From positions 1-14,341 of the IMG/VR virus record IMGVR_UViG_2703718829_000006: a DNA stretch of 14,341 nt; one strand, given 5' to 3'. This DNA comes from a virus. Its lineage: Duplodnaviria; Heunggongvirae; Uroviricota; Caudoviricetes. Both the position numbers and the translations under genes were made by a program. The notes below the pieces were generated by a model. That model had not been told where the DNA came from, did no database searches, and saw nothing but the letters and a program-made list of their open reading frames with translations. Positions 1,171 to 14,341 of the stretch are shown here, piece after piece; position 1 is the first letter of the stretch; the number at the start of each line of letters is the position of its first letter.

Positions 1171-1339
1171 CGCCTCCTTCGGCTATCCATTTCATAACGG
1201 CTTTTCTGCTATACCGCGTCGGGTACGTTAAAACTGGCTGAGGGAATCCGTGGTCTTTGCGTAAGCGCCATACTGCTGTTTTTTTCTTTTTGAGCAGGTC
1301 GAAAACTTCCTGTTCTTCCATAAAATCAGTAGTAGTCAT
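1154..1339 (-). CDS. Excisionase / AlpA-family small DNA-binding protein (Xis-like).
   Basis: 61 aa counted from the internal ATG at 1339, which has a GAGGA Shine-Dalgarno about 6 nt upstream on the minus strand. The pattern DF..E.....K.TAVWRLRKDHGFPQPV....RYSRKAVMKWI fits AlpA/Xis-type winged helix regulators. The 3' end overlaps the integrase 3' end by 17 bp in convergent orientation. Confidence 0.7.
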   Translation of the reverse strand: MTTTDFMEEQEVFDLLKKKKTAVWRLRKDHGFPQPVLTYPTRYSRKAVMKWIAEGGVNRAV

Positions 1340-1392
1340 GATTTTCCTCGTTGTTAAAGTCTTTATTGTCCGCAACTCTATTCTATGGTGAT

Positions 1393-1632
1393 TCACGCCG
1401 CCCGCATCGAGCGCAGCTTCTTAATGTGCTCGCTCTGTTCCAGTTCAGCCCGGATCTGCCGGGCCTCATCATGGTCGAGCGGTTCAAAGTCGTTGTTAAA
1501 CCTGTACATGCTGGCCGTATTTATCCGTCCTTGGCGCCAGTAGCACACCGTTCTGGCGTCACAGCTGTGAATAATGACTGGCCATCCGTGACCGTCTGGG
1601 AAAATCTGGCCTCGCTGAATGAGTTGAAACAC
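1393..1632 (-). CDS. Hypothetical small early-left protein (79 aa).
   Basis: ORF sits in the minus-strand operon between the TraR-like gene and xis. No family recognised. Confidence 0.45.
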   Translation of the reverse strand: MFQLIQRGQIFPDGHGWPVIIHSCDARTVCYWRQGRINTASMYRFNNDFEPLDHDEARQIRAELEQSEHIKKLRSMRAA

Positions 1633-1635
1633 GGC

Positions 1636-1854
1636 TCACCTCTGATGCTTCCCGCGCTTTTCCGCTTCGTCCTGGCAGTCAGCGCAGCGCTGACAACCTG
1701 CCACCAGTTCCCGGCGCCGTGCCGGAATTGCCTCTCCACAATCAATGCAGTGCGTAGCCGATACCGCGTTATGGTTGATGCGATGGGCCTGTATCGCCTT
1801 ATCGCGGAGAAGCTCTTCTAATTCGCTGGCCTGATCGATAATTTCTGCGCTCAT
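1636..1854 (-). CDS. TraR/DksA-family C4 zinc-finger protein.
   Basis: 72 aa with a Cys-X2-Cys ... Cys-X2-Cys arrangement (CIDCGEAIPARRR...GCQRCADCQ), typical of phage TraR/DksA-like proteins. The stop overlaps the start of the upstream methyltransferase gene. Confidence 0.8.
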   Translation of the reverse strand: MSAEIIDQASELEELLRDKAIQAHRINHNAVSATHCIDCGEAIPARRRELVAGCQRCADCQDEAEKRGKHQR

Positions 1855-2378
1855 GCTGCCTCCATGGTTCCGATCCGCTTTAACTCACTCAGCGAAACGG
1901 ACGTGATGATGCGTCTTGGCGTGATGAATGGCCGCCAGATGAACAAAATTGAGTCCTTTGGGTTGCTCTGCCGTTTACCTGTAGCCGACGCCGGCACAAA
2001 CTGAATGCGTCCGCCGGTTATCAGGCGAATCTCATCAGCGCTCTGCATCGCGGAGAGAAACCATCCGGTAGAGATATCTGCGGGAAGCAGAATGACTACC
2101 GTCTGGGACTGCGCTTTACATTGCTCGGTGGCTTTCTCCACCCACGGCCCGATATCGGAATAGGGTGGGTTGCACCAGATCGCGCCGTACGACGACCATT
2201 CACGACTCAGCGAGTTATCCAGCTCAGTGAGATAGTGAGCGCATAGCGCATTACGTTCAGAGGCAGCAGCATCCAGCCAGAAGCCAAACTCAAGATCGAG
2301 CGCGTTAAATATTTCAATCGGCGTTTGCCAGTAGTCTCTTTCATTTTTCGGTGTGTTCGATCCGCCGTAGTCAGTCAC
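1851..2378 (-). CDS. Phage DNA N6-adenine methyltransferase (Dam-like orphan MTase).
   Basis: 175 aa with WQTP...FGF.LDAAAS and the catalytic NPPY motif (WCNPPYSDIGPWV), the hallmark of phage Dam-family N6-adenine methyltransferases. 4-bp ATGA overlaps with both neighbours indicate operon coupling. Confidence 0.85.
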   Translation of the reverse strand: MTDYGGSNTPKNERDYWQTPIEIFNALDLEFGFWLDAAASERNALCAHYLTELDNSLSREWSSYGAIWCNPPYSDIGPWVEKATEQCKAQSQTVVILLPADISTGWFLSAMQSADEIRLITGGRIQFVPASATGKRQSNPKDSILFIWRPFITPRRIITSVSLSELKRIGTMEAA

Positions 2379-2809
2379 AATGCCGTCTCCATTTCGTCGA
2401 TATAAAGGCCAGCAGCAATCAGCCGGCGGCGCCGGGCTGCTTTCTCAATACATTCCCGGCGATTACCCTCTGCCGCCAGAGCCATAGAACGCCGAGTGAA
2501 CAGGCGTGTTTTACCCTGAGGGGTAATAACCTTTGGCTTTGTGATCAGGTCAAAGGTGCGGTCACAGATGCCGTCCTCGTTGAGCCAGGTTTCCGATGTA
2601 ACCAGCTGTGCAATGCGCCCTTCGCCTCTGGTCAGGCCGTTCGCGACACGGTTAAATTCGATGAGCGTTACGCCGAATTTCTCTGCGATTTCGCTGCCAG
2701 TTACCGGGCGACCGCGCGTCTGAATCATCCAGATAACGCGCTCGCGGAGTCCGGAGAATTTCCCGGCCTTACCTGGTCTGCGGTAAAATGGTGTGCGTTT
2801 CATTTCCAC
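2375..2809 (-). CDS. Hypothetical protein, possibly DNA-binding.
   Basis: 144 aa, basic, with a helix-turn-helix-like stretch (VTGSEIAEKFGVTLIEFNRVANGL). Translationally coupled to the downstream Dam gene. No family recognised. Confidence 0.55.
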   Translation of the reverse strand: MEMKRTPFYRRPGKAGKFSGLRERVIWMIQTRGRPVTGSEIAEKFGVTLIEFNRVANGLTRGEGRIAQLVTSETWLNEDGICDRTFDLITKPKVITPQGKTRLFTRRSMALAAEGNRRECIEKAARRRRLIAAGLYIDEMETAL

Positions 2810-2829
2810 TGCTCCCAGAGTATTTCGGC

Positions 2830-3312
2830 CTATTTGATCATCAGAGACGGCTTGCCGAGCTTTATTTGCGCCCCGGGCACGTCAATACCAGCTTCGATTT
2901 GATGCTTGATAGCCAGTTTGTCTGGTTTGATATTCGTCTCGTACTCGATGAATTCAGGCGGTAATGCGCTGGCGTCAGTAATCTCGACAGATTTAGAAGG
3001 TGCGCGAACCGTTACCTGATGAACTCCGGCTTTAAGTGATTTTTTACCGATGGTTTCCAATGATTTAGCGACATACTCCTTCATGCTTGCCACGCGGTTT
3101 TCGGCGGCTTTTGCACGCTCAATAAGGCGCTTACTTTCTTCTTTCAGAGCCTCGGCATAAGCAGATTCGTTTTTGCAGACCGCAAGAATCTGCTCAACCT
3201 TTGCTTCCAGCTCCCACTCAATTCCATCAAGAGTGTCGGCTATCATTTCAGGCTCCATGCCGGAGTCAGTCAGCCTGGCGAAATCGTTGGCGATCTGATA
3301 AAGGGCTGTCAT
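2830..3312 (-). CDS. Siphovirus Gp157-family protein, commonly found next to RecT/Erf recombinases.
   Basis: 160 aa, acidic and coiled-coil-rich, with an N-terminus ([11 protein letters not shown]...) resembling Gp157-family proteins. Sits immediately downstream of recT with a 4-bp overlap. Confidence 0.65.
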   Translation of the reverse strand: MTALYQIANDFARLTDSGMEPEMIADTLDGIEWELEAKVEQILAVCKNESAYAEALKEESKRLIERAKAAENRVASMKEYVAKSLETIGKKSLKAGVHQVTVRAPSKSVEITDASALPPEFIEYETNIKPDKLAIKHQIEAGIDVPGAQIKLGKPSLMIK

Positions 3313-4223
3313 TGGGTAACCTCTTCAAATTTGGCTTTACACTTGGCGTAAACGGCCTGAACCTCTTGCTGTAGGCGCATTCCTGCGGTCATTTTGTAGG
3401 CCGTCTGGAAATGGGTTTTGAGGTCATTCATGTTTTCTGCCTGCTTCATGTCTTCGCAAAGCGAGCGGACGGTGTTAATCAGCTCTTGCTCAGCGTTTTC
3501 TTTCGACTGGATAACTTCACTTTCAGGCGTGTAAGACATAACCGGTTCGGTAAAAATGCCTTCGCTCTCGTTAAGCATGTCCACGGCATTATCGAGACGG
3601 TCAGCGCGCGGCCAGTATTTATAGGCGCGCTTCACGATCGTCTTTCGGGCCATCTCAGACCAGAAGTTGACCCAGGGGCCTTTCGGGGATGTACCGGCTT
3701 TACTCACCTTCCTGATTTCTTCAATTTCGGCGATGCTCATCTCTTCAGTCAGGTAGTCGCCGTCTGATGTTTTAACTGTGCAGTAGCCTCCGATAACGGC
3801 GCCACGCTCTTCAGGTGTGGCGAATGGGTTGTATTTGTGGGCCGGTGCTTTATCGAGGCCAATAGTTTCGTAAGCGTCGTTCGCATGAACCAGCTTGCAT
3901 TGGCCCCACTTAATGACGCCGGCTGATTGGGCTATATGCAAAAGCCCCATATAGCTGATATCAAGGCATACCATGCCGTCACGCGGTACTAAGTAGGCCA
4001 GCTTGCTGGCAGGGTTTAAGCTGATCCCAACCGCTGCCACGTTAATGATTGCGTTCTGAGCGCTGACAGGATTGCTAACTGCCGTTTTGGCTAACGTGTC
4101 ATTGCGCTGAAATAGCTGAATCGCAAACTGGCACTCTTTTGCCCATGTCAGGCTCTGGTCAGTAAGAGCGCTGGTAAACAGCGGCTCTTGCTGTTTAACG
4201 AACTGAATAAGATCGAAGCTCAT
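3309..4223 (-). CDS. recT: RecT-family single-strand annealing recombinase.
   Basis: 304 aa. The block [24 protein letters not shown]...AVDMLNESE closely parallels the conserved RecT block of Rac RecT (GPWVTHWEEMAKKTAIRRLFKYLP...AVSMDEKE). Confidence 0.9.
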
Positions 4224-4516
4224 AGCCCCTCCTCAATGTTGACTTGATGCCGGGCAATGACTTCCACCATGTAGCGCACGTTTTCCGCCATGCGCTCCTG
4301 AAACTCAACATCGTCATCAAACGCACGGGTAATGGCTTTTTTGCTGGCCCCGTGGCGTTGCAAATGATCGATGCATAGCGATTCAAACAGGTGCTGGGGC
4401 AGGCTTTTTTCCATGTCGTCTGCCAGTTCTGCCTCTTTCTCTTCACGGGCGAGCTGCTGGTAGTGACGCGCCCAGCTCTGAGCCTCAAGACGATCCTGAA
4501 TGTAATAAGCGTTCAT
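4220..4516 (-). CDS. gam: Gam, host RecBCD nuclease inhibitor (short GamS-length form).
   Basis: The 98-aa product ([37 protein letters not shown]...) is nearly identical, as recalled, to the C-terminal short form of lambda Gam. 4-bp overlap with recT. Confidence 0.9.
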
Positions 4517-4592
4517 GGCTGAACTCCTGAAAATGGCTGTGAAAATATCGCCCGCGAAATGCCAGGCTGATTAGGAAAACAGGAAAGGGGGG

Positions 4593-4799
4593 TTAGTGAT
4601 TCAGGCCGTTACCGCGTCCGTCGAGAAAAACTTCCACGAGCAAATCACGGGTATAAGTGCGCTCGATGCCGCGATGCAGATAAAGCCGTCCGCGTAAATT
4701 AGCTGATGCAGTCCAGGTACCATCTTTGTGTTTGACCAGCATTCCTGGCATGACCGCGCCGCGATTAACGGTCTGTGTTCCGTAATGTTGATGAACCAT
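4593..4799 (-). CDS. Hypothetical small protein in the kil/cIII position upstream of gam. The start is uncertain: the ORF is open up to a TTG at 5003.
   Basis: The ATG at 4799 is preceded on the minus strand by AGGAG with a 5-nt spacer, giving a 68-aa product (MVHQHYGTQTVNRGAV...). The longer 136-aa frame starts at TTG with no Shine-Dalgarno and has an arginine-rich N-terminus. No family recognised. Confidence 0.4.
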   Translation of the reverse strand: MVHQHYGTQTVNRGAVMPGMLVKHKDGTWTASANLRGRLYLHRGIERTYTRDLLVEVFLDGRGNGLNH

Positions 4800-5052
4800 A
4801 AAAACTCCTGCCCGTAAGCTGGGCTGCTGAACATATAGAGACTTCTGCGCGTATTCAGGCGGTGGATGGCCGCCGGTTGTCATAACTAAGCCGCCTCGTT
4901 GAAGCGACTGAGGTATGAAATGTTGAGTTAATTTCAGCTGGTCACACCGACGTTCACGCGTCCGTTTCACCCCTCGCACTCCCCGAAGCCTGCCGAAATT
5001 CAAACTGCGGATCTAAGCGGTCATCGCAACGGTGAATCAGGTAGTTGCCGTA

Positions 5053-5135
5053 TCGTTGTGTTGTTGCGACGAACTTATTTAAAACTATAGTTGTTTTATC
5101 GTCAACAACAAAAGTTGTTTTATTGGTTGTTTTAG
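5053..5135. promoter_or_regulatory. Putative OL operator / pL region: a cluster of GTTGTT-containing repeats.
   Basis: Direct copies of RGTTGTTTTA at 5089-5098, 5113-5122 and 5125-5134, another GTTGTT at 5060-5065, and an inverted AACAAC at 5104-5109. The same motif recurs in the cI-cro intergenic region. Confidence 0.45.
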
Positions 5136-5245
5136 ATATAACTGATTGTATTTAGGATGGATTTATTTTGTGACTTGAATCGCATAGCGATAACTGAAGC
5201 GAGGTTATGGTGGTTTTTTTAACGGTGTGTGTGATGAGGGGAGGG

Positions 5246-5273
5246 CAAAAGAAAACCCGGCACGGTGACCGGG
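5246..5273 (-). terminator. Putative intrinsic terminator downstream of cI.
   Basis: Plus-strand sequence CCCGG-cacggtga-CCGGG is preceded by caaaagaaaa. On the minus strand this reads as a hairpin followed by a T-rich tract, about 120 nt past the cI stop. Confidence 0.45.
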
Positions 5274-5394
5274 ATTCTTACGCCGTTAGGTAAAGATATT
5301 ATTGCGGTGGCTTAATATTACTACCTAGAGCAAAGATAGGAATTAGTTCTTTACTGAATGAGCACAATGCCCAGTTGATAATTTTTAATTGGTA

Positions 5395-6084
5395 CTACCC
5401 ATGCTTCCTATATGTCTGCGGCATGCTCCCAATAACCTTACCGAAGATGAACACCCGGTTCATCTCGTCTTTCTCGATCGGGTCCCACGGTGAGTAGCTT
5501 TTGTTATCAGAGATGACCAGCAGCTTATCCTTCATCATTTGCAGGCGCTTTACATGGGCTGTGTCGTCGTACAGAAACGCATAGATACCATCACCGTCGA
5601 AAGATTTAACTGTGATATCAACGAACAGCAGATCACCTGGTTCGATCGTTCCTGACATGCTGTCACCACGCACGTTAATGATGCGGATATTTTCCGCCTT
5701 CCTACCATCGAACATGTGACGAGCATCGTCAAACGAGTACTCAACCGAGCGTAGAACTTCTACAAACTCACGGTTGATGACTCCCGGCCCAGCACTGACT
5801 TCTATATCAAGAACGTCAATCTTGAAGTATTTGGAATGGCTGACAGTTGATTGTATTGGTTGCACTGTACTGTCTGACATATTTCCAACGCCAGAAGATA
5901 ACCATTCTGCGCGCACACCCAAAGCGTTCGCGATCTCCACGATTTTAGTTGTTTGATTAGCTTTCCCTGTTTCGATTTTCTGAATAGCAGCCTGGCTAAC
6001 CCCGACCAAATCCCCAAGCGCCTTTTGTGTAAGGCCTCGCGCTAATCTGGCTTCTTTAAGTCTTTCTGAGAGTGTTGTTTTCAT
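5395..6084 (-). CDS. cI: CI-like prophage repressor (N-terminal HTH plus C-terminal S24 LexA-like autopeptidase domain).
   Basis: HTH region LSERLKEARLARGLTQKALGDLVGVSQAAIQKIETGK. The C-terminal domain has GDSM (catalytic Ser) and a VKRL lysine typical of S24 self-cleaving repressors. Start placed at the ATG at 6084; the ORF is open up to 6150, but that upstream ATG lies inside the operator palindrome. Confidence 0.88.
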   Translation of the reverse strand: MKTTLSERLKEARLARGLTQKALGDLVGVSQAAIQKIETGKANQTTKIVEIANALGVRAEWLSSGVGNMSDSTVQPIQSTVSHSKYFKIDVLDIEVSAGPGVINREFVEVLRSVEYSFDDARHMFDGRKAENIRIINVRGDSMSGTIEPGDLLFVDITVKSFDGDGIYAFLYDDTAHVKRLQMMKDKLLVISDNKSYSPWDPIEKDEMNRVFIFGKVIGSMPQTYRKHG

Positions 6085-6161
6085 AGTCCAAATGTACAAC
6101 CAAGGTTTTATTCTATCAAACGAAAATGGTTGTTGACTAAAAACAACCATAGTTTTAATCT
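6072..6161. promoter_or_regulatory. Putative OR operators and pR promoter between cI and cro.
   Basis: 25-bp dyad ATGGTTGTT-gactaaa-AACAACCAT at 6126-6150. A further GTTGTTTT at 6074-6081 abuts the cI start codon. A -35-like TTGACT at 6133-6138 and a -10-like TAATCT at 6156-6161 lie upstream of the cro Shine-Dalgarno GGAGG. Confidence 0.5.
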
Positions 6162-6188
6162 TGATTCAAATTAACCACGGAGGTTGTT

Positions 6189-6419
6189 ATGAACCCAGCT
6201 ATCAAAACAGCGATCAATATCGTTGGTTCACAAAAGAAACTGGGCGCTGCTTGCGAAGTTTCACAGCAGGCCGTCTATAAGTGGCTTCACAACAAAGCAA
6301 AGGTATCCCCTGAACATGTCGGCAGCATTGTTACGGCTACTGGTGGAGTAGTGAAGGCATACCAGATTCGCCCGGATCTTCCGAAGTTGTTTCCACACAC
6401 CGAAAAGAACGCAGCTTAA
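6189..6419 (+). CDS. cro: Cro-like HTH regulator (YdaS/Cro family).
   Basis: 76 aa, divergent from cI, with a strong GGAGG Shine-Dalgarno. HTH segment QKKLGAACEVSQQAVYKWL. Position and pattern match YdaS-type Cro analogues. Confidence 0.8.
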   Translation: MNPAIKTAINIVGSQKKLGAACEVSQQAVYKWLHNKAKVSPEHVGSIVTATGGVVKAYQIRPDLPKLFPHTEKNAA

Positions 6420-6488
6420 ATTTCCATTTCACGCTCTTTAACAATAAGCAATCAACTTAACAGTCAATTCAAACTAAAGGAGTCAATT

Positions 6489-7028
6489 ATGCAACCACTT
6501 CCATACCAACAGACTAGCGGATTTAGCCCGACTGCGGTGATAAATCGTTCTCAAACAAAACAGGTGCTAGGCCACGAAAAAATCCGTGATGCCGTCCGCG
6601 CCTGGTCGGCTGTAGATAATCAGGATGTCGTTGCCACACTCATTGTGAATGAGTATCGGGAGCAGGGCGGCGGCACCATCGATTTCCCTGATGATGTCAG
6701 CCGTGCACGCCAGAAGCTGTTCCGCTTCCTCGATAACAAATTCGATTCTGAAAAATACCGAAATAACGTGCGTGAACTGACCCCGGCAATTCTGGCGGTA
6801 CTACCGCTGGAATATCGCGGTTACCTGGTTGAGCAGGATAGCTTCATGGCTAGGTTGGCTGAAATGGAAAAGGAACTCAGTGAGGCAAAACAGGCTGTCA
6901 TTCTCAACGCACCACGCCACCAGAAACTGAAGGAAATTAGTGAAGGTATTGTGTCGATGTTTCGTGTGGACCCAGATCTGGCTGGTCCATTGATGGCGAT
7001 GGTTACTACCATGCTGGGGGCGATATGA
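6489..7028 (+). CDS. YdaT-like protein in the cII position (putative CII functional analogue).
   Basis: 179 aa with an AAGGAG Shine-Dalgarno, immediately after the Cro/YdaS-like gene and before O. Motifs EYREQGGG and LTPAILAVLP resemble YdaT-family proteins, as recalled. Confidence 0.55.
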   Translation: MQPLPYQQTSGFSPTAVINRSQTKQVLGHEKIRDAVRAWSAVDNQDVVATLIVNEYREQGGGTIDFPDDVSRARQKLFRFLDNKFDSEKYRNNVRELTPAILAVLPLEYRGYLVEQDSFMARLAEMEKELSEAKQAVILNAPRHQKLKEISEGIVSMFRVDPDLAGPLMAMVTTMLGAI

Positions 7029-7114
7029 CAGGTTCAGAAATGGCGAAAGCCGGTCTGCTGGAACAGAACCGACTTTCAGGTGCAAATCGTAACACACTCA
7101 TTGCGGGAGGAATT

Positions 7115-8044
7115 ATGGCAAACACTGCTGAGATATTCAATTTTCCAGTGCCGGATGCGGCACAAAAGGAGCCGCGCGTGGCAGATCTCGATGATGGTTA
7201 TACGCGCATTGCAAATGAGTTGCTGGAAGTTGTGATGCTGGCCGGATTAACACAGCACCAGCTTCTGGTCTTCCTGGCTGTCATGCGCAAAACATATGGT
7301 TTTAATAAAAAACTGGATTGGGTGAGCAACGAGCAACTGTCCGAATTGACCGGGATATTGCCGCACAAGTGTTCTGCTGCAAAAAGTGTTCTGGTAAAGC
7401 GTGGGATTTTGATTCAGAGCGGGCGGAATATCGGTATTAATAATGTGGTCAGTGAATGGTCAACATTACCCGAATCAGGTAAGAAAAATAAAGTTTACCT
7501 GAAAGAGGTAAATTTACCTGAATCAGGTAAGAAAAGTTTACCCAAATCAGGTAAAGGCGTTTACCCGAATCAGGTAAACACAAAAGACAAACTAACAAAA
7601 GACAATATAAAACCTTTTTCGTCCGAGAATTCTGGCGAATCCTCTGACCAGCCAGAAAACGATCTTCCTGTGGTGAAACCAGATGCTGCAATTCAGAGCG
7701 GCAGCAAGTGGGGGACAGCAGAAGACCTGACCGCCGCAGAGTGGATGTTTGACATGGTGAAGACCATCGCGCCATCAGCCAGAAAACCGAATTTTGCTGG
7801 GTGGGCTAACGATATCCGCCTGATGCGTGAACGTGACGGACGTAACCACCGCGACATGTGCGTGCTGTTCCGCTGGGCATGCCAGGACAACTTCTGGTCC
7901 GGTAACGTGCTGAGTCCGGCCAAACTCCGCGACAAGTGGACCCAGCTCGAAATCAACCGAAACAAGCAACAGGCTGGCGTGACAGCTAGCAAACCAAAAC
8001 TCGACCTGACAAACACAGACTGGATTTACGGGGTGGATCTATGA
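7115..8044 (+). CDS. O: Replication initiation protein O (lambda O family).
   Basis: Start placed at the ATG at 7115, preceded by GGGAGG. The N-terminal domain (VADLDDGYTRIANELLE...MRKTYGFNKK) resembles lambda O. The iteron origin is embedded mid-gene, as in lambda. The stop overlaps the start of P. Confidence 0.85.
   Translation: MANTAEIFNFPVPDAAQKEPRVADLDDGYTRIANELLEVVMLAGLTQHQLLVFLAVMRKTYGFNKKLDWVSNEQLSELTGILPHKCSAAKSVLVKRGILIQSGRNIGINNVVSEWSTLPESGKKNKVYLKEVNLPESGKKSLPKSGKGVYPNQVNTKDKLTKDNIKPFSSENSGESSDQPENDLPVVKPDAAIQSGSKWGTAEDLTAAEWMFDMVKTIAPSARKPNFAGWANDIRLMRERDGRNHRDMCVLFRWACQDNFWSGNVLSPAKLRDKWTQLEINRNKQQAGVTASKPKLDLTNTDWIYGVDL
7466..7620. repeat. Origin of replication (ori-lambda-like): five 17-bp iterons plus an adjacent A-rich region, inside the O gene.
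   Basis: TTACC-N7-GGTAA palindromic iterons at 7466-7482, 7495-7511, 7514-7530, 7538-7554 and 7561-7577, followed by the A-rich tract 7578-7620. Confidence 0.8.
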
Positions 8045-8742
8045 AAAACATCGCCGCACAGATGATTAACTTTGACCGTGAGCAGATGCGTCGGATCGCC
8101 AACAACATGCCGGAACAGTACGACGAAAAGCCGCAGGTACAGCAGGTAGCGCAGATCATCAATGGTGTGTTCAGCCAGTTACTGGCAACTTTCCCGGCGA
8201 GCCTGGCTAACCGGGACCAGAACGAACTGAACGAAATCCGCCGCCAGTGGGTTCTGGCTTTCCGGGAAAACGGGATCACCTCGATGGAGCAGGTTGACGC
8301 AGGAATGCGCGTAGCCCGTCGGCAGAATCGACCATTCCTGCCATCACCCGGGCAGTTTGTTGCCTGGTGCCGAGAAGAAGCATCCGTTAACGCCGGGCTG
8401 CCAAACGTCAGCGAGCTGGTTGATATGGTCTATGAGTATTGTCGGAAGCGTGGCCTGTATCCGGATGCAGAGTCTTATCCGTGGAAATCAAACGCGCACT
8501 ACTGGCTGGTTACCAACCTGTACCAGAACATGCGGGCCAATGCGCTGACTGACGCGGAATTACGGCGCAAGGCTGCCGATGAACTGACTTGTATGACCGC
8601 GCGAATTAACCGTGGTGAGGCGATACCTGAACCAGTAAAACAACTTCCTATCATGGGCGGCAGACCTCTAAATCGTGCACAGGCTCTGGCGAAGATCGCA
8701 GAAATCAAAGCTAAGTTCGGACTGAAAGGAGCCAGTGTATGA
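8041..8742 (+). CDS. P: Replication protein P (DnaB helicase loader).
   Basis: 233 aa, essentially matching lambda P along its length as recalled (MKNIAAQM.NFDREQMRRIANNMPEQYDEKPQVQQVAQIINGVFSQLLATFPASLANRDQNE...). Confidence 0.95.
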   Translation: MKNIAAQMINFDREQMRRIANNMPEQYDEKPQVQQVAQIINGVFSQLLATFPASLANRDQNELNEIRRQWVLAFRENGITSMEQVDAGMRVARRQNRPFLPSPGQFVAWCREEASVNAGLPNVSELVDMVYEYCRKRGLYPDAESYPWKSNAHYWLVTNLYQNMRANALTDAELRRKAADELTCMTARINRGEAIPEPVKQLPIMGGRPLNRAQALAKIAEIKAKFGLKGASV

Positions 8743-9038
8743 CGGGAAAAGAAGCAATTATTCATTACCTGGGGACGCATAAGAGCTTCTGTGCGCAGGA
8801 CGTTGCTGCGGTAACAGGCGCAACAGTAACCAGCATAAATCAGGCTGCGGCTAAAATGGCGCGGACAGGAATCTTAGTCATTGATGGTAAGGTCTGGCGA
8901 ACGGTGTATTACCGGTTCGCTACCAGGGAAGAACGGGAAGGAAAGGTGAGCACGAACCTGATTTTTAAGGAGTGTCGCCAGAGTGCCGCGATGAAGCGGG
9001 TTTTATTTGTTTATGCGGCGGCGGGAGGAAATCAGTGA
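8739..9038 (+). CDS. ren: Ren (exclusion protein Ren-like).
   Basis: 99 aa (MTGKEAIIHYLGTH.SFCA.DVAA.TGATVTSINQAAAKMAR...VWRTVYYRFATREEREGK), highly similar to lambda Ren as recalled. 4-bp overlap with P. Confidence 0.9.
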   Translation: MTGKEAIIHYLGTHKSFCAQDVAAVTGATVTSINQAAAKMARTGILVIDGKVWRTVYYRFATREEREGKVSTNLIFKECRQSAAMKRVLFVYAAAGGNQ

Positions 9039-9130
9039 GGTTGACGATAACTCGTGTCTGGAGTTATATTTTGCCCGTTGCCGCAAAATCGGCACACGGG
9101 ATTGGCGTCCCGGAATACTACTCAACGCAT

Positions 9131-9151
9131 ACCGCGTTAAGCGGTTTTTTT
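9131..9151 (+). terminator. Intrinsic terminator after ren (tR2-like position).
   Basis: ACCGC-gttaa-GCGGT hairpin followed by TTTTTTT. Confidence 0.6.
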
Positions 9152-9250
9152 ATGCGCTAAGCACGGCTACGCCCAAATTATGGTGGGCTGTGTGAGGGCT
9201 TCTTCGGGAGCGCCGGGTTTGAGTAGCCGGTTACGCCAACCTTGCACAGT

Positions 9251-9283
9251 TCACCACCAGTCGATTGGCGTCGTTGGTGGTGA
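9251..9283. promoter_or_regulatory. Perfect 9-bp inverted repeat with a 15-bp spacer, just upstream of the Bro-N gene.
   Basis: TCACCACCA (9251-9259) and TGGTGGTGA (9275-9283), about 25 bp upstream of the ATG at 9308. Could be an operator or a 5'UTR hairpin. Confidence 0.4.
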
Positions 9284-9307
9284 TGGTTAACCTGATGAGG
9301 TGATACT

Positions 9308-9916
9308 ATGACTACTCAATTAGCATTCCACAAAACGACTTTTACCCCAATTTGCCACAATAACAGAATTTGGCTTACTGCCACTGAAGTTGGTTTAGCT
9401 CTGGAATATGCGGACGATAAAGCAGTTCAGCGCATTTACTCTCGTCACTCAGATGAATTTACAGATATGATGACAAGGGTGGTCAAAGTGACCACCCCTC
9501 GTGGAATGCAGGAGTCTCGAGTATTTAGCCTTCGCGGAGCCCATTTGATCGCCATGTTTGCACGAACTCCTGTAGCCAAAGAGTTCCGTCGCTGGGTTCT
9601 GGATATTCTCGATCGAGAAGTTCAACAATCCCCAATCATAAAACAATTCACTGATAACGAACTTTGCACACTTGCTTGGTTGTGGCGAGCTGGGGATGCG
9701 ATGTTAACCGCCTGCCAGAACGTTACTCCTCTTCTTCAGGTTGCGGAGCATCGTGAAGCTGGTCGCTTCACTTCTATCGAGCAAGAATATCCCCAGATAC
9801 TCAATAAGGCACAGGCAATCCTTGCCAGAGAAACGGCACATGTAAAATTCCGGCCGTGGCAGGATGATAAGTGGAGTCGAGTTTTGCCGCATTTACGTTC
9901 GGATCGATTACAGTAG
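9308..9916 (+). CDS. Bro-N domain protein (antirepressor/Roi-like family).
   Basis: 202 aa with a GAGGTG Shine-Dalgarno. The N-terminal half fits the Bro-N fold pattern (F....NNRIWLTATEVGLALEY.D......R.......T.GG.Q....I.E.G.Y.LI..S....A..F..WV...). The C-terminal half is unassigned. Confidence 0.8.
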   Translation: MTTQLAFHKTTFTPICHNNRIWLTATEVGLALEYADDKAVQRIYSRHSDEFTDMMTRVVKVTTPRGMQESRVFSLRGAHLIAMFARTPVAKEFRRWVLDILDREVQQSPIIKQFTDNELCTLAWLWRAGDAMLTACQNVTPLLQVAEHREAGRFTSIEQEYPQILNKAQAILARETAHVKFRPWQDDKWSRVLPHLRSDRLQ

Positions 9917-10377
9917 ATTCCAATTAACAATGAGAAACACATAGCCACCCCGTGGTATTGAAACCATATAATGTTGGATTTGAAAACAGATCTTTTTCCA
10001 TGTATTAATAACTACATCCCCGCGAGTGATTCAAAAAGGAGGGCCCAATTTTGTCCGAGTTTTTGTATTCCCCCGCATGCCGCTGCGGAGCACTACATCT
10101 GAGTGTCTGACTAGGGGATAAAATTAGACTGGATAGTGAGAAGAAAGTGGCGTGCTAGGCTGTGCCGAGTGCTACCAGTACACCCTGGGGGTGTGCAGCT
10201 TTCGCCGAGACTGTAGTGGGTATCGGTTAATGCACGAAAAACCGAGAGGTCAGACAACCAATTTGCCGTAGGATTGTTTCCGGTGCGATACCGGTGTACT
10301 AACTGAAAGCAATGCGAAAAAGCATAAACTCGGTCCTTCAGTCGCCCTACACACTATTTACTAAGAAGGGCTAAAGC

Positions 10378-10734
10378 ATGGATACAATTATCACATGGAT
10401 GGGAGATCGTCTGTTGGGGTGGATAACAAACAAATCCGATCTGCGGCAGAGGGCAATCACTGGATTAACTCCTGCGATTTGTTCAACAATTTTATATACT
10501 GAAAAATTAAAACGTGGTGAGCCTAATAACCCAAACGAAGAAGAAAAACTTTATAGGCTTTGGTATGAAGCGTCTTCCCAAGTCGTAGACTTTGATCGAG
10601 AGCTGGCTAAAAGATGTTTAGATAAATCAGAATATTGGCTTCATTCTGAATTATATAGCCCTGAGAAAGTTGAAGAGCTAAACATTTCTTTGGTTGGTAT
10701 GAAGGCAACGCTTGAAGGAATAAAGCACAATTAA
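10378..10734 (+). CDS. Hypothetical AT-rich orphan protein (118 aa), accessory/moron gene.
   Basis: Clean ORF with an AAGAAGGG Shine-Dalgarno-like sequence. Visibly more AT-rich than the flanking phage genes. No recognised motif. Followed by a hairpin plus T-run at 10865-10888. Confidence 0.55.
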   Translation: MDTIITWMGDRLLGWITNKSDLRQRAITGLTPAICSTILYTEKLKRGEPNNPNEEEKLYRLWYEASSQVVDFDRELAKRCLDKSEYWLHSELYSPEKVEELNISLVGMKATLEGIKHN

Positions 10735-10864
10735 AACCTTTGATTTGCGATAATCAACTCGCCATAATCATGTCATCGGAGCCTGAACAACTCCGGTGAC
10801 TTCTGCGCTAAACGGGGACGTTTATGCGCACACACAATCCAAACTCTCTTCTCCCTCCACAGAT

Positions 10865-10888
10865 GCAGAAATGCACCTGCGTTTTTTT
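10865..10888 (+). terminator. Putative weak intrinsic terminator closing the accessory insert.
   Basis: GCAG-aaatgcac-CTGC followed by G and TTTTTTT, upstream of the ybcN start. Confidence 0.4.
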
Positions 10889-10921
10889 GCATCCAACGTT
10901 TGACCTCTGCGGAGGTGAAGC

Positions 10922-11377
10922 GTGAACCTCCCACAAGACGGTATCAAATTGCATCGCGGTAACTTCACCGCTATCGGTCAGCAGATCCAGCCTTATCTGG
11001 AGGACGGCAAATGCTTTCGCATGGTGCTTAAACCGTGGCGCGAAAGACGCAGTCTTTCCCAGAATGCACTCAGCCACATGTGGTACAGCGAAATCAGTGA
11101 GTACCTCATCAGCAGGGGGAAATCGTTCGCTACTGCAGCATGGGTAAAAGATGCTCTCAAACACACATACCTCGGTTATGAAACCAAGGACCTGGTTGAT
11201 GTCGTAACCGGCGAAATCACTACGATCCAGTCGTTACGCCATACCTCCGATCTTGATACCGGAGAGATGTATGTCTTCCTGTGTAAGGTTGAAGCCTGGG
11301 CGATGAATATTGGCTGCCGCCTGACTATTCCGCAGAGCTGCGAGTTCCAGCTGCTGCGCGACAAGCAGGAGGCGTAA
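10922..11377 (+). CDS. ybcN: NinB-family protein (DLP12 YbcN-like, described as a DNA base-flipping protein).
   Basis: 151 aa, GTG start with a GGAGGTG Shine-Dalgarno. The [12 protein letters not shown] motif matches the NinB RSL.QN motif, and the overall sequence matches DLP12 YbcN as recalled. Confidence 0.8.
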
Positions 11378-11547
11378 TGACTACACCGCTTATTCGGGTC
11401 ATGAACGGACACATCTACAGAGTACCAAATCGTCGTAAGCGTAAGCCTGAGCTGAAGCCATCCGAAATACCAACACTGCTAGGGTATACCGCCAGCCTGG
11501 TTGATAAAAAATGGTTGCGACTGGCAGCAAGGAGGAATCATGGCTGA
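11377..11547 (+). CDS. ninE: NinE (small nin-region protein, 56 aa). Not in the supplied ORF track because it is short.
   Basis: The ATG overlaps the ybcN stop (TAATG). Translation [56 protein letters not shown] matches NinE as recalled. The 3' end overlaps the ybcO start. Confidence 0.75.
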   Translation: MTTPLIRVMNGHIYRVPNRRKRKPELKPSEIPTLLGYTASLVDKKWLRLAARRNHG

Positions 11548-11830
11548 TTTGAGAAAAGCAGCGCGTGGTCGGGAATGCCAGGTAAGAATCCCTGGCGTAT
11601 GTAATGGCAATTCTGAGACGTCTGTACTGGCACATATCCGGCTGGCTGGATTGTGCGGTACCGGTATCAAACCGCCAGACCTGATTGCCACCATTGCATG
11701 TTCTGCCTGTCACGACGAAATCGACCGCCGCACACATTTTGTCGATGCTGAGTATGCAAAAGAATGCGCGCTGGAAGGTATGGCGAGAACACAGGTTATC
11801 TGGCTGAAAGAGGGGGTTATTAAGGCGTGA
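11540..11830 (+). CDS. ybcO: YbcO-like protein (DLP12 YbcO family, described as a putative nuclease).
   Basis: Start at the ATG at 11540, preceded by AAGGAGGA. The 96-aa product ([33 protein letters not shown]...[11 protein letters not shown]) has conserved Cys/His and matches DLP12 YbcO as recalled. Confidence 0.85.
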
Positions 11831-12189
11831 ATACCTACAGCATCACATTACCCTGGCCTCCGAGCAATAATCGCTATTACCGCCATAATCGCGGGCGCAC
11901 GCACATCAGCGCAGAGGGGCAGGCATACCGCGATAACGTCGCCCGAATCATTAAAAACGCAATGCTGGATATCGGCCTGGCTATTCCTGTGAAAATCCGC
12001 ATTGAGTGTCACATGCCGGATCGCCGTCGCCGTGACCTGGATAATCTGCAAAAAGCTGCTTTTGACGCACTTACCAAAGCAGGTTTCTGGCTGGATGATG
12101 TTCAGGTCGTTGATTACCGTGTTGTGAAGATGCCCGTTACCAAAGGTGGGAAGCTGGAGCTGACCATCACTGAACTGGGAGATGAATGA
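11827..12189 (+). CDS. rusA: RusA Holliday junction resolvase.
   Basis: 120 aa ([89 protein letters not shown]), near-identical to E. coli RusA as recalled. GTG start overlapping the ybcO stop. Confidence 0.95.
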
Positions 12190-12326
12190 TGTTTGAGTCT
12201 TATATGGCAGAACGTCTTCGCCGCCGCTGGGTGCGCCTGCGCTTATATCATTTTCCCGGTTCTGTTTTGACCGATTACCGAATACTGAAGAATTACGCCA
12301 AAACACTGAAAGGAGCTGCCGCATGA
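12186..12326 (+). CDS. ylcG: YlcG-like small protein (46 aa). Not in the ORF track because it is short.
   Basis: ATG overlaps the rusA stop. Translation [46 protein letters not shown]. Position after rusA matches the DLP12 gene order. The stop overlaps the start of the Q-like gene. Confidence 0.6.
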
Positions 12327-13012
12327 ATACCCAATATTTACAGTATGTCCGCGAGCAACTCATGGTGGCTACCGCTGACTTGAGCGGAGCAACGAAAGGC
12401 CAGCTTGAAGCCTGGCTGGAGCATGCACAATTTGATACTGGTACATACAAACGAAAGAAGCGACGCATTCTGGATGAGGTAACTGGCAAGATTATTATGC
12501 TGGATAATCCGCCGATTTCCGGTAAACAGTCGTACGCAAAAGGTTCATCTGTCGCCCTGATCAGTCCGGTCGAGTTTTCAACCTCTTCATGGCGCCGCGC
12601 TGTTCTGTCTCTCGATGAGCATCAGAAAGCATGGTTGCTGTGGAGTTACAGTGAAAATATTCGCTGGGAGCATCAGGTTGCCATAACGCAGTGGGCATGG
12701 AGCGAGTTTAAGACTCTGTTGGGTACCAGAAAAATTGCAGGTAAGACACTGGAACGCCTGAAGAAGTTGATCTGGCTGGCGGCACAGGATGTGAAGAGCG
12801 AACTGGCAGGGCGTGAGGCTTATGAATACCAGGAACTGGCGTCACTGGTGGGAGTGACATCAAAAAACTGGTCTGAGACATTCACTGAACGCTGGGTTGC
12901 AATGAAGCACATTTTTCTACAGCTTGATAGCGAAGCTTTATTGCTTCTAACGAGAACACGTTCAAAACAAAAGGCGACATTTTCACAGCAAAATATTGCA
13001 AAACTGGATTAA
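12323..13012 (+). CDS. Putative late-gene antiterminator (Q-like). The call rests mainly on position.
   Basis: 229 aa, immediately upstream of the late regulatory region and lysis cassette, in the Q position of lambdoid genomes. Sequence is not lambda Q, and the family assignment was not verified. Confidence 0.55.
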   Translation: MNTQYLQYVREQLMVATADLSGATKGQLEAWLEHAQFDTGTYKRKKRRILDEVTGKIIMLDNPPISGKQSYAKGSSVALISPVEFSTSSWRRAVLSLDEHQKAWLLWSYSENIRWEHQVAITQWAWSEFKTLLGTRKIAGKTLERLKKLIWLAAQDVKSELAGREAYEYQELASLVGVTSKNWSETFTERWVAMKHIFLQLDSEALLLLTRTRSKQKATFSQQNIAKLD

Positions 13013-13194
13013 AAAAGCATATATTTCATATAAATCTGATATTTTGCCAATGTTGTACGCACTGGCAGTAATCCAAATTCAAGCTCGAGGTTTAAAGCCT
13101 TGGGCTTTTCTGTTTCTGGGCGGTGAGTATCCTTCCAACGTACCCCAGCCAGGGTGTCTTCAGCTGTTGAGTTGATATTGCTTAACCCTCTGTT

Positions 13195-13220
13195 GCCAGC
13201 TACATGCTGGCTTTTTTATT
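13195..13220 (+). terminator. tR'-like intrinsic terminator in the late promoter-proximal region (the target of Q antitermination).
   Basis: GCCAGC-tacat-GCTGGC hairpin followed by TTTTTTATT, between Q and the holin gene. Confidence 0.65.
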
Positions 13221-13322
13221 CCAGGCTTGCGGGGAGCATCAACTCCGTGCTTTGTCGTTAAATTACCCCGTGAGCCTGATTTCTGACATTTAACGTCCCG
13301 GCCTTTTGTCGGCGGCGAAACA

Positions 13323-13640
13323 TTGGCTATTCATATGCACGAAAAAGAGAGCCTTGCCGGAGCGTTCTGGCTCGTTTTGCTGATCATCGCAGGTTGGGGC
13401 GGTCTGGTCCGCTACCTGATAGATGTGAAGCAGAGTAAAGCAACGTGGAGTTGGATAAATGCTCTGGCTCAGATAGTGGTATCAGGATTCACCGGTGTTA
13501 TTGGTGGCCTGATCAGCATCGAAAGTGGATTCAGTATTTACATGATTCTCGCGACAGCGGGGATTAGTGGTGCGATGGGTTCGGTTGCACTGACGTACTT
13601 CTGGGAACGACTGACAGGGGTGAAAAATGCAAAATCTTAA
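13323..13640 (+). CDS. Holin (class I, three predicted transmembrane segments) with a possible dual start.
   Basis: 105 aa from TTG at 13323, with an in-frame ATG at 13335. Three hydrophobic stretches (AGAFWLVLLIIAGWGGLV, WINALAQIVVSGFTGVIGGLI, FSIYMILATAGISGAMGSVAL) and a charged C-terminus. Directly precedes and overlaps the endolysin gene. Confidence 0.75.
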   Translation: MAIHMHEKESLAGAFWLVLLIIAGWGGLVRYLIDVKQSKATWSWINALAQIVVSGFTGVIGGLISIESGFSIYMILATAGISGAMGSVALTYFWERLTGVKNAKS

Positions 13641-14103
13641 TCCTCAGCGTAAAGCTTTCCTCGATATGGTGGCATGGTCAGAAGGAACGGATAACGGACG
13701 GCAGAAAACCAGAAATCATGGTTATGACGTCATTGTTGGCGGAGAGCTATTCACTGATTACTCCGATCACCCTCGCAAACTTGTCACGCTAAACCCAAAA
13801 CTCAAATCAACAGCCGCAGGACGTTACCAGCTTCTTTCCCGTTGGTGGGATGCCTATCGTAAGCAGCTTGGCTTGAAAGATTTCTCTCCGAAAAGCCAGG
13901 ACGCAGTGGCATTGCAGCAGATTAAAGAGCGTGGCGCTTTACCGATGATTGATCGCGGTGATATTCGTCAGGCTATCGACCGTTGCAGCAATATCTGGGC
14001 GTCGTTACCTGGTGCAGGTTACGGTCAGTATGAACATAAAATCGGTGACCTGATTGCCCGATTTAAAGAGGCTGGTGGGGTGGTAAATGAAGTTGAGCTA
14101 TAA
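13627..14103 (+). CDS. R: Endolysin, lambda R-type lytic transglycosylase.
   Basis: 158 aa (NPQRKAFLDMVAWSEGTDNGRQKTRNHGYDVIVGGELFTDYSDHPRKLVTLNPKLKST.AGRYQLLSRWWDAYRKQLGLKDF...), near-identical to lambda R as recalled. Confidence 0.95.
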   Translation: MQNLNPQRKAFLDMVAWSEGTDNGRQKTRNHGYDVIVGGELFTDYSDHPRKLVTLNPKLKSTAAGRYQLLSRWWDAYRKQLGLKDFSPKSQDAVALQQIKERGALPMIDRGDIRQAIDRCSNIWASLPGAGYGQYEHKIGDLIARFKEAGGVVNEVEL

Positions 14104-14325
14104 GCTGGTTATCGCTGCATTCTTCTTTACTGTCATCGGTTCTTTCATCTGGTCTGCCAACCACTACTACAGCAAATATCAGCACGAAAAGAAACGTGCT
14201 GATGAGGCTGTACAAAATGCTGAATCTGCAACAGCCATTACCCGTAACGTCCTGCAATCACTGCAAATCGTCAATACAGTTATAGAGGTTAACCAGCATG
14301 CAAAACAGCAGATCGCACTGGAGTC
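14087..14325 (+). pseudogene. Rz-like i-spanin, truncated after about 80 codons.
   Basis: The N-terminus has a signal-anchor TM segment (LVIAAFFFTVIGSFIWSANHYY) like lambda Rz (...LSWAVNHYR...), which is about 150 aa. The reading frame runs into IS2-like terminal sequence at 14326 and stops at the window end. Confidence 0.65.
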
Positions 14326-14341
14326 TAGACTGGCCCCCTGA
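14326..14341. mobile_element. Probable left terminal inverted repeat of IS2 (first 16 bp only), inserted in the spanin gene.
   Basis: TAGACTGGCCCCCTGA matches the recalled IS2 terminus (TAGACTGGCCCCCTGAATCTCCAGACAACC...). Only 16 bp are inside the window, so this rests on memory of the IS2 end. Confidence 0.5.

Follow-up and report, generated by a model that had tools for sequence, protein, structure and literature searches.

What lies between the ren-like gene and ninB of a lambdoid prophage whose early region is represented by 14,341 nucleotides (nt) of DNA (IMG/VR record IMGVR_UViG_2703718829_000006, positions 1 to 14,341; the whole stretch is called the window in the following), and is it one unit? 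The interval concerned (9039-10921) had been seen in a preliminary description as an accessory insert of ~1.9 kb, composed of a terminator, a Bro-N gene, a spacer without open reading frame (ORF), an AT-rich orphan gene and a second terminator. The ren-like ORF, the Bro-N ORF, the inverted repeat, the ORF-free stretch, the ORF of 118 amino acids (aa) and the hairpins were all found at their places (Table 1). However, on balance we favour a different arrangement, in which three independent accessory modules are stacked in a hot spot of lambdoid prophages between ren and ninB: an antirepressor switch (module 1), a stand-alone RNA gene of ~330 nt (module 2) and an AT-rich cargo gene (module 3). 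The main interest of the interval lies in module 2, a predicted and well-supported new structured RNA gene in Escherichia coli lambdoid prophages.

Between the Bro-N gene and the 118-aa ORF (9917-10377) there is indeed no ORF of 60 aa or more on either strand, the largest being ORFs of 43 and 48 aa. As such, 460 bp without an ORF are unremarkable; the non-random part is the conservation and covariation, and this stretch is not the mere spacer for which it had been taken, since an RNA gene that had not been suspected is located there. The first clue came from Klebsiella phage Kp4856-1, which keeps the region corresponding to ~9990-10344 at 78% identity between genes that are different on both sides. 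Variants were gathered by pattern scans of viral contigs, metagenomes and species-representative genomes, by BLAST against E. coli genomes and from the contexts of protein homologues. This yielded 30 distinct variants with 74-100% identity from at least five genera (alignments A3 and A6), which originate from E. coli, Klebsiella, Citrobacter braakii, Enterobacter bugandensis, Obesumbacterium proteus and metagenomes. By BLAST the RNA is present in 159 of 5426 complete E. coli genomes, and the two cultured phages Turner and IdasGreatGrand carry it as well. In Klebsiella, Citrobacter, Enterobacter and Obesumbacterium it is kept at 74-82% identity with differing flanks. The conserved length is held at 316-318 nt, with invariant blocks of 15-33 nt interspersed with variable ones, in which the substitutions compensate each other. 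From the set with one genome per species a single match was obtained, in a mis-binned metagenome-assembled genome; the RNA is too sporadic for that collection. A covariance model (R1) built from alignment A6 recovered every known copy in the loci scanned.

The structure model combines RNAalifold helices with an all-against-all column scan and comprises 16 helices with 90 pairs, which corresponds to 2700 cells over the 30 variants. Standard pairs occupy 96.9% of these cells, compared to 34-44% when the partners are slid by 1-3 columns. Both sides are changed in 25 of the 90 pairs, the covariation score is 0.234 against 0.04-0.06 in the slid controls, and none of 500 shuffles reached the observed values. 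The 5' and 3' domains of the RNA are linked by two long-range pairings. The kissing contact between the loops of hairpins A and B is paired in 30 of 30 variants and occurs in four covarying versions (CACUAC/GUAGUG, CGCAAC/GUUGCG, CACCAC/GUGGUG and CAUCAC/GUGAUG). For the second long-range helix a single compensatory event was detected, C-G to U-A at 10111/10249 in the Citrobacter variant (locus L085), and the support for this helix is therefore weaker.

Other candidate pairings were tried and rejected. The Citrobacter variant breaks a GGU/ACC hairpin at 10248-10259 and keeps the long-range GUCUGAC/GUCAGAC pairing, a closing helix GGAGGG/UCCUUC is broken by U10337 to G in many variants, and a pairing of CCGAG (10055) with CUCGG is disrupted in L012, L028 and L080, which support a local hairpin instead.

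The pairing is strand-asymmetric: G-U pairs make up 10.5% of the cells, and on the opposite strand the same pairs are 86.6% paired versus 96.9% on the plus strand, which places the RNA on the plus strand. A predicted sigma-70-type promoter precedes it, which was missed by a simple consensus scan because the hexamer fails the position rule of that scan. Approximately 25 distinct upstream sequences differ in their letters but share the same geometry, i.e., TTGnnn, 17-18 nt, then TTTAAT, ATTAAT or TTAAAT (often with TG before), followed after 6-7 nt by the conserved ATCCCC, with an A-rich tract further 5' and A10016 as the first conserved base. In most variants without the 118-aa gene a canonical intrinsic terminator follows at most 15-25 nt past the last conserved helix. 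Promoter, strand and terminator, as predicted, agree with each other and with an RNA gene.

Comparison with known RNAs gave no match in Rfam 15, neither at E≤1 on the window nor at E≤10 on the 441-nt stretch 9960-10400. ARAGORN detected no tRNA or tmRNA in the window, the RNA contains no tandem repeats, and the neighbouring genes, both here in the window and at related loci, lack the reverse transcriptase that would be expected for a retron or a defence-associated reverse transcriptase system. In the literature no description was found, whether searched by topic or by sequence string, though one could exist outside the searchable literature. Judged from these comparisons, module 2 matches no described RNA family and appears to be previously undescribed.

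The sole extra match of model R1 has 47 nt (33 bits, model positions 17-63) and lies on the Alteromonas mediterranea plasmid pAMDE1 (NC_019394.1, 98825-98871; L089 3001-3047). It corresponds to the 5'-domain hairpin CAAAAAGGAGGGCC..AUUUUG.CC.AGUUUUUG (window ~10027-10073) with 86% identity, and the rest of the RNA is missing. The motif occurs in four conjugative plasmids at the start of a 1.4-kb unannotated stretch adjoining a tyrosine recombinase.

Some of the data count against the RNA gene or lower the weight of the figures given above. The fold energy of the single sequence is unremarkable (z ~ -0.4 for 9990-10377, both strands); single-sequence folding is thus uninformative here and the structure is revealed by comparative data only. 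The 30 variants represent perhaps 8-10 lineages, so that the covariation counts are inflated by shared ancestry, and the columns behind the 5'-domain helices and the second long-range helix are almost invariant. Nevertheless, it is very unlikely that the stretch represents, instead of an RNA, the remains of a gene, a gene for a small peptide or a recombination or replication site at the DNA level. A frame of 61 codons (MSDQGMNQDW...), open within the element in divergent variants, was rejected as a gene, its fourth codon being TAG in both the window and the L008 type. Likewise, a 19-codon frame (10052-10102), although kept in 28 of 30 variants behind GGAGG, was judged unlikely to encode a peptide, being interrupted by an in-frame UGA in L017 and L022 and carrying substitutions that are non-synonymous and compensate helices. 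The exact swapping of cargo at the 3' edge of the element would suit a DNA-level site; on the other hand, wobble at third positions is absent from the conserved blocks (15-33 nt), the structure is strand-specific through its G-U pairs, and promoter and terminator bracket the element. Independent of this question, the GGAGG, a strong Shine-Dalgarno-like sequence, is followed 9 nt on by UUG and by the frame up to UGA (10100-10102), and translation or ribosome binding may occur in this region (10038-10102).

The genes around the RNA vary. A member of the 118-aa family is next downstream in the window type and in L050, L051, L077 and L080, and one E. coli lineage has frameshifted remnants of this family (66/60 aa) at this position. 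Elsewhere the downstream partner is a protein of 183 aa (Klebsiella, E. coli and Citrobacter), one of 191 aa with hydrophobic ends or one of 95 aa, and in L028 the RNA and its terminator are followed directly by the core gene DUF1367. Upstream, an antirepressor, a dATP/dGTP pyrophosphohydrolase or unnamed proteins were found. No protein neighbour is conserved across the RNA variants, and homologues of the 118-aa and 183-aa proteins also exist without the RNA. In the frameshifted lineage the RNA is intact (98-99% identity), with two lineage-specific substitutions that keep the pairing (U-G to C-G and C-G to U-G). As the partners vary or are absent and the RNA stays intact where the ORF is frameshifted, the RNA is read as an autonomous gene. 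Its 3' edge (...CCAGUCGCC) appears to be a recombination boundary for exchangeable cargo, and as such the RNA offers a practical landmark for mining prophage cargo.

In the 183-aa protein (L003 4385-4936 in Klebsiella phage Kp4856-1; L085 3001-3531) the sequence RLRHNLLH forms an Rx4H motif, which recalls HEPN RNases. The protein matches PHROG 27260, homologues of it without the RNA exist in Pantoea and Superficieibacter, and no Pfam, NCBIfam or PADLOC match was obtained. The 191-aa protein (L008 11327-11902, L013 407-982, L037 9460-10035) starts ~25 nt past the RNA terminator, has hydrophobic N- and C-terminal segments and no family match, and is another candidate for cargo or an effector.

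How could the RNA act? We propose that a strong promoter of its own drives its transcription in the lysogen and that it would act in trans as a folded particle, either as a protein-binding scaffold, as a decoy or by self-association like other prophage-borne ornate RNAs. Module 3 would be exchangeable cargo, expressed here by read-through from the RNA promoter. The size, the two inter-domain contacts, the own strong promoter and the lack of a fixed partner or regulated gene lead to this proposal, and the RNA is probably not a base-pairing small RNA (sRNA) or a leader. A more far-reaching interpretation, which is possible but tentative, is a new class of ornate phage RNA that is made in the lysogen, folded and possibly self-associating. 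Its long-range contacts could be inter- and not intramolecular, as in ROOL and GOLLD, and it would play a part in conflicts between phage and host or between phages, as a decoy, scaffold or catalyst, with the exchangeable 3' cargo (four-helix TIR-related, Rx4H and membrane proteins) as effectors under its control. The resemblance to ROOL and GOLLD is one of kind only. These RNAs are prophage-borne and non-coding as well, with many helices and covarying loop-loop contacts, without obligatory protein partner nearby and without known function. However, they are roughly 580-800 nt in size, whereas the new RNA has ~330 nt and resides in Enterobacterales lambdoid phages, and the Rfam comparison gave no match between them in sequence or structure. 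For ROOL and GOLLD the loop-loop contacts proved to be intermolecular (10.1101/2024.12.08.627333).

Several points speak against a trans-acting particle, starting with the argument itself, which infers action in trans by exclusion only. In variants with a terminator the next ORF follows ~25-65 nt past the T-run, which leaves no space for a promoter in between. This would fit the main alternative, in which the RNA is a cis-acting leader, similar to a riboswitch or attenuator, that sets terminator read-through or translation of the downstream cargo. In the window the RNA forms the 5' untranslated region of the 118-aa ORF, and at its 3' end CAGUCGCC, which is similar to the terminators' 5' arm, could compete for the 3' arm. 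In addition, GUCCUUC (10333-10339) complements the ribosome binding site GAAGGGC (10366-10372) of the 118-aa ORF, a pairing that would compete with the closing helices of the RNA. However, this complementarity is missing in L050, L051 and L077. Riboswitch classes normally control a coherent gene set, whereas the genes downstream of this RNA are mutually unrelated (at least five, or a core nin gene such as DUF1367 in L028). Moreover, a broken 118-aa ORF goes along with a preserved RNA, and with 330 nt and two inter-domain contacts the RNA is far larger than an attenuator requires. We therefore consider a leader rather doubtful.

The constant order of RNA and 118-aa gene, with a spacing of ~45 nt and no terminator in E. 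coli, Enterobacter bugandensis, Obesumbacterium proteus and viral contigs, is a further point against a stand-alone particle and would suit a two-component unit, i.e., a ribonucleoprotein, a pair resembling type III toxin-antitoxin systems or a defence/anti-defence pair. Across these pairs the RNA identity is 77-81% and the protein identity 69-79%. Remote homologues of the protein are fused to TIR beside GmrSD and to a PDC-S60-like domain, and the order RNA, terminator, protein recalls ToxIN. ToxIN and the AbiF-associated RNA (PMC12373285) indeed share with the new locus a promoter, a structured RNA, a terminator and a small protein in prophage or defence contexts. But in contrast to type III toxin-antitoxin systems the new RNA has no tandem repeat, the downstream proteins are mutually unrelated, no endoribonuclease or confirmed HEPN fold was found, and the RNA persists without the protein. 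It also occurs with four other downstream partners or with none, and protein homologues with 42-51% identity lie beside the theta-subunit gene (DNA_pol3_theta) without the RNA. About half of the viral contigs of E. coli type, which are probably a single lineage, have a frameshift in the protein and a conserved RNA. Together with the lack of a PADLOC match and of a recognised toxin fold, this makes a two-component unit improbable.

Returning to the autonomous RNA gene, its significance lies in the host group: E. coli lambdoid prophages are among the most closely studied genomes, and the RNA would still be an unrecognised gene class there. The claim is directly testable, since cultured phages and complete E. 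coli genomes carry the RNA.

Module 1 (9039-9916) starts directly after the ren stop codon. A promoter-like site places the predicted transcription start ~7-9 nt 5' of the match to isrK, and the IsrK-like sRNA ends with its own intrinsic terminator (9131-9151). The hairpin (9131-9145) and T-run had been noted correctly, but they are the 3' end of this sRNA and neither an insulator nor a terminator of ren. A C4-like antisense RNA follows. Its loop TTGAGTAG is the exact complement of CTACTCAA, which occurs both in IsrK and in codons 2-4 of the antirepressor gene, and its single-stranded segment ACGCCAA complements TTGGCGT at 9102-9108 and 9265-9271, within the 10-nt direct repeat GATTGGCGTC. The second copy of this repeat is exposed in the loop of a hairpin, whose stem is the perfect 9-bp inverted repeat already recognised in front of the Bro-N gene. 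The 249-nt leader 9077-9325 folds well above shuffled sequence (z = -3.75). The Bro-N gene was borne out, with a P22_AR_C domain in addition (E-values of 4.4e-10 for Bro-N and 1.4e-15 for P22_AR_C). It matches PHROG 245/5060 'anti-repressor Ant' (PHROG 245 at 5e-54) and is labelled as P22AR C-terminal domain protein in RefSeq. By its composition, module 1 appears to be an antirepressor operon of the P1 immI / Gifsy-1 isrK type, thus a known kind of switch.

Two details fit this assignment less well. The match to Rfam RF03163 (c4-a1b1) at 9064-9116 stays below the gathering score (40.8 vs 46.7 bits); since the a1 and b1 boxes themselves are present, the c4-a1b1 function is likely nonetheless. 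Furthermore, the stop codon of the 36-codon ORF is located 17 nt before the ATG of the antirepressor gene, without the start/stop overlap of Gifsy-1. The trio of isrK, C4 and sub-threshold c4-a1b1 is also present in E. coli L9 and in phage PhiR26_1.

In P1 and P7 the C4 RNA is needed for full repression of the antirepressor (PMC8198154). As in their immI region (c4-icd-ant; Rfam clan CL00128), a C4-family RNA and its target are on one transcript here, a' and b' complement an upstream pair a1/b1 and a pair a2/b2 at the translation start of the controlled gene, and the controlled gene is an antirepressor. In contrast to P1, where immI belongs to a plasmid prophage, the module is found between ren and ninB of a lambdoid prophage, icd is missing so that a2 lies directly in the antirepressor codons, a1/b1 are packaged in a terminated sRNA, and the antirepressor is of the Bro-N/P22_AR_C type and not P1 Ant1/2. 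The order promoter, IsrK with terminator, short ORF and antirepressor is the same as in isrK-orf45-anrP of Gifsy-1 in Salmonella, where IsrK has 77 nt and a leaky terminator and the short ORF is conserved in nucleotides and not in peptide (PMC4825925). There, read-through of the IsrK terminator yields a translationally silent mRNA, and IsrK in trans activates translation of the antirepressor (PMC4825925). The Gifsy-1 operon is located downstream of antQ and followed by isrJ, whereas the module here follows ren and precedes the new RNA, and Rfam gave no isrJ match in the window. The short ORF has 36 codons here versus 45 and does not overlap the ant start.

By analogy with P1 c4-icd-ant and Gifsy-1 isrK-orf45-anrP, the C4-like RNA would mask the initiation region of the antirepressor gene and keep it silent in the lysogen. 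Excess IsrK would titrate the C4-like RNA or remodel the leader and thereby switch on antirepressor synthesis, and the antirepressor would then inactivate the S24-type CI repressor. For this last step, the action on the resident repressor, family annotation and the Gifsy-1 and P1 precedents are the only guides. Thus, the P1-type C4 logic and the IsrK switch of Gifsy-1 would be the same device, for which the box coordinates in Table 1 can be used in experiments.

At 98-99% identity, the P22_AR_C half of the antirepressor (compared for window 9606-9916), the RNA and the 118-aa gene recur in many E. coli prophages. The N-terminal half of the antirepressor is different in these; it is Bro-N here and belongs to a Rha-annotated gene in PhiR phages. 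This indicates a recombination breakpoint between the two antirepressor domains.

The 118-aa ORF of module 3 is AT-rich as described before, with a GC content of ~0.38 compared to ~0.50 for the window. Profile searches and structure prediction, which had been suggested, assigned no Pfam, NCBIfam or PADLOC 2.0 family to the protein, and the 202-aa antirepressor has no PADLOC match either. The AlphaFold (AF2) model of the 118-aa protein is a four-helix bundle (pLDDT 77), for which Foldseek returned generic helical bundles only (E≥0.39), i.e., no significant fold match. Close homologues number only 21, all in Enterobacterales, and a truncated form of the protein constitutes PHROG 8527. In a profile search of 1.84 billion representative proteins, 349 clusters were obtained at E≤1e-3. 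This remote family has mostly 120-135 aa with invariant T37, Y40, W62, K83 and W87, and sampled members lie in prophage accessory slots, either after the theta-subunit gene near the integrase or in the gap between lysis genes and terminase. The protein accordingly belongs, as judged from these profiles, to a broad, uncharacterised and recurrent family of prophage accessory proteins.

A few family members form the N-terminal domain of longer proteins, one of them with a PDC-S60-like C-terminal domain. A 309-aa protein (L090 3093-5930) shows homology to the 118-aa protein over its N-terminal ~95 residues (hhalign probability 97%) and has a C-terminal TIR_2 domain; its gene directly follows a GmrSD type IV restriction gene. 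Such TIR-fused relatives hint at a role of the family in conflict systems and are not evidence of defence; within PHROG 12412/8527 and the wider helical family of ~125 aa only rare members are TIR- or PDC-S60-like-fused. As no terminator separates the RNA from the 118-aa ORF in the window, its expression probably depends on the RNA promoter and on read-through from PR.

The right end of the accessory DNA was found to differ from the one proposed. Phage 82 and many phages of lambda type match positions 10739-10921 with 92-94% identity, and for the equivalent in phage 82 the annotation lists a putative promoter, a possible regulator-binding repeat and, just before orf151 (ninB), orf33. From this comparison the accessory DNA ends at ~10738, with 10739-10921 being backbone. 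The terminator-like hairpin with T-run in front of ninB exists, but it sits within orf33 of this phage-82-like backbone.

The requested comparison across relatives showed that the three-part arrangement is far from universal: at ≥80% coverage the full interval was found in one of 5426 E. coli genomes and in one of 50,697 phage records. Other relatives carry different cargo in the slot, as had been anticipated. In phage PhiR26_1 the defence gene PD-lambda-1 lies between ren and an isrK/C4/Rha module (L002 1190-2692), and a 169-aa ORF takes the place of the RNA and the 118-aa gene. E. coli L9 has two unrelated unannotated genes (221 and 319 aa, without PADLOC match) between P and the isrK module (L001 1973-3612), and dATP/dGTP pyrophosphohydrolase or ParB-like genes were found in further relatives. 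In several E. coli genomes (H31-H33, H35) an IS3-family or IS2 element is inserted in the interval, which splits the match into two pieces ~1.3 kb apart. These observations support the ren-ninB slot as a mosaic hot spot for cargo. The modules recombine independently and not as one unit, with breakpoints of their own for the RNA, for the cargo and for the N-terminal antirepressor half.

This bears on the earlier picture of a single insulated moron with exclusion or anti-phage cargo. The cargo hot spot with PD-lambda-1 in PhiR26_1, the AT-richness of the 118-aa ORF and the rarity of the arrangement are in its favour. However, the left terminator is part of IsrK, the right hairpin lies in orf33 of the backbone, and the modules with their separate breakpoints recombine independently. 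The Bro-N gene, regarded as possible exclusion cargo, codes for an antirepressor that would be under antisense-RNA control and thus serve lysis-lysogeny regulation. Neither protein matches a PADLOC model. For the 118-aa ORF, remote TIR-fused relatives give no more than a hint of an anti-phage role. Of the features expected for a moron, the RNA unit has a conserved promoter, a terminator in other variants and none in the window, and a backbone-like GC content of 0.51; the 118-aa ORF is AT-rich, with no own promoter identified and no dedicated terminator. The single moron is largely refuted by the anatomy and retains little credibility.

Table 1. Features of the ren-ninB interval and its borders (window coordinates).
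Feature	Position	Strand	Evidence or remark
ren-like ORF	8739-9038		PHROG 142
Promoter-like site TTGACG-18-TATATT	9041-9070	+	consensus scan, 10/12 matches; directly after ren stop codon
IsrK-like sRNA	9079-9151	+	Rfam RF01394, 60.7 bits (gathering score 50)
Decoy box b1 GATTGGCGTC	9100-9109	+	in IsrK; repeat search
Decoy box a1 CTACTCAA	9118-9125	+	in IsrK; repeat search
C4-like antisense RNA	9176-9261	+	Rfam RF01695, 72.7 bits (gathering score 45), model positions 1-87/87
36-codon ORF over C4-like RNA	9180-9290	+	read from sequence; positional analogue of Gifsy-1 orf45
C4 loop a' TTGAGTAG	9219-9226	+	
C4 single-stranded b' ACGCCAA	9232-9238	+	
Perfect 9-bp hairpin (9251-9259/9275-9283) with target box b2 GATTGGCGTC (9263-9272) in loop	9251-9283	+	repeat search
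Antirepressor ORF, 202 aa	9308-9916	+	Pfam: Bro-N 17-100, P22_AR_C 112-180
Target box a2 CTACTCAA	9312-9319	+	covers antirepressor codons 2-4
Predicted sigma-70-type RNA promoter, TTGAAA (9980-9985), TG-T-ATTAAT (10001-10009)	9980-10009	+	A-rich tract upstream
Predicted structured non-coding RNA, ~330 nt	10016-10347	+	alignments A3, A6; 5' domain 10016-10119, 3' domain 10127-10343
Kissing contact, 6 bp: hairpin A loop CACUAC / hairpin B loop GUAGUG	10091-10096 / 10213-10218	+	column scan
Second long-range helix GUCUGAC / GUCAGAC	10105-10111 / 10249-10255	+	invariant in 29 variants
118-aa ORF, four-helix-bundle orphan	10378-10734	+	PHROG 12412 end to end, 3e-69; GC ~0.38
Putative promoter, phage-82 type	10740-10768	+	phage 82 annotation
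orf33	10824-10925	+	phage 82 annotation; 33-aa RefSeq coding sequence in E. coli L9
Hairpin and T-run	10861-10884	+	within orf33, upstream of ninB/ybcN
NinB/YbcN homologue	10922-11377		

The remaining window corresponds to the early region of a lambdoid prophage. The gene order starts with the integrase (1-1170), Dam, Gp157, RecT and Gam. The S24-type CI repressor with its Peptidase_S24 domain is encoded on the minus strand (5395-6150), followed by a Cro/YdaS-like gene, a YdaT-domain protein, O, P and the Ren-like protein. On the 3' side of the interval NinB/YbcN is succeeded by NinE, YbcO, RusA, Q and the lysis genes. The positions of cro and cII (6189-7028) are held by the YdaS-like and YdaT-domain proteins, which bear 'toxin' labels in Pfam yet occupy regulatory positions. 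From the leftward 136-aa ORF (4593-5003), which lies at the position of N and has no Pfam match, to cI, the segment 4950-5400 shows a GC content of 0.38-0.42 and a strong positive GC skew of up to 0.30, and presumably represents the PL/nutL leader. In Klebsiella phage Kp4856-1 a full-length match to the STnc100 sRNA (88 bits; L003 7979-8174) is located downstream of Q.

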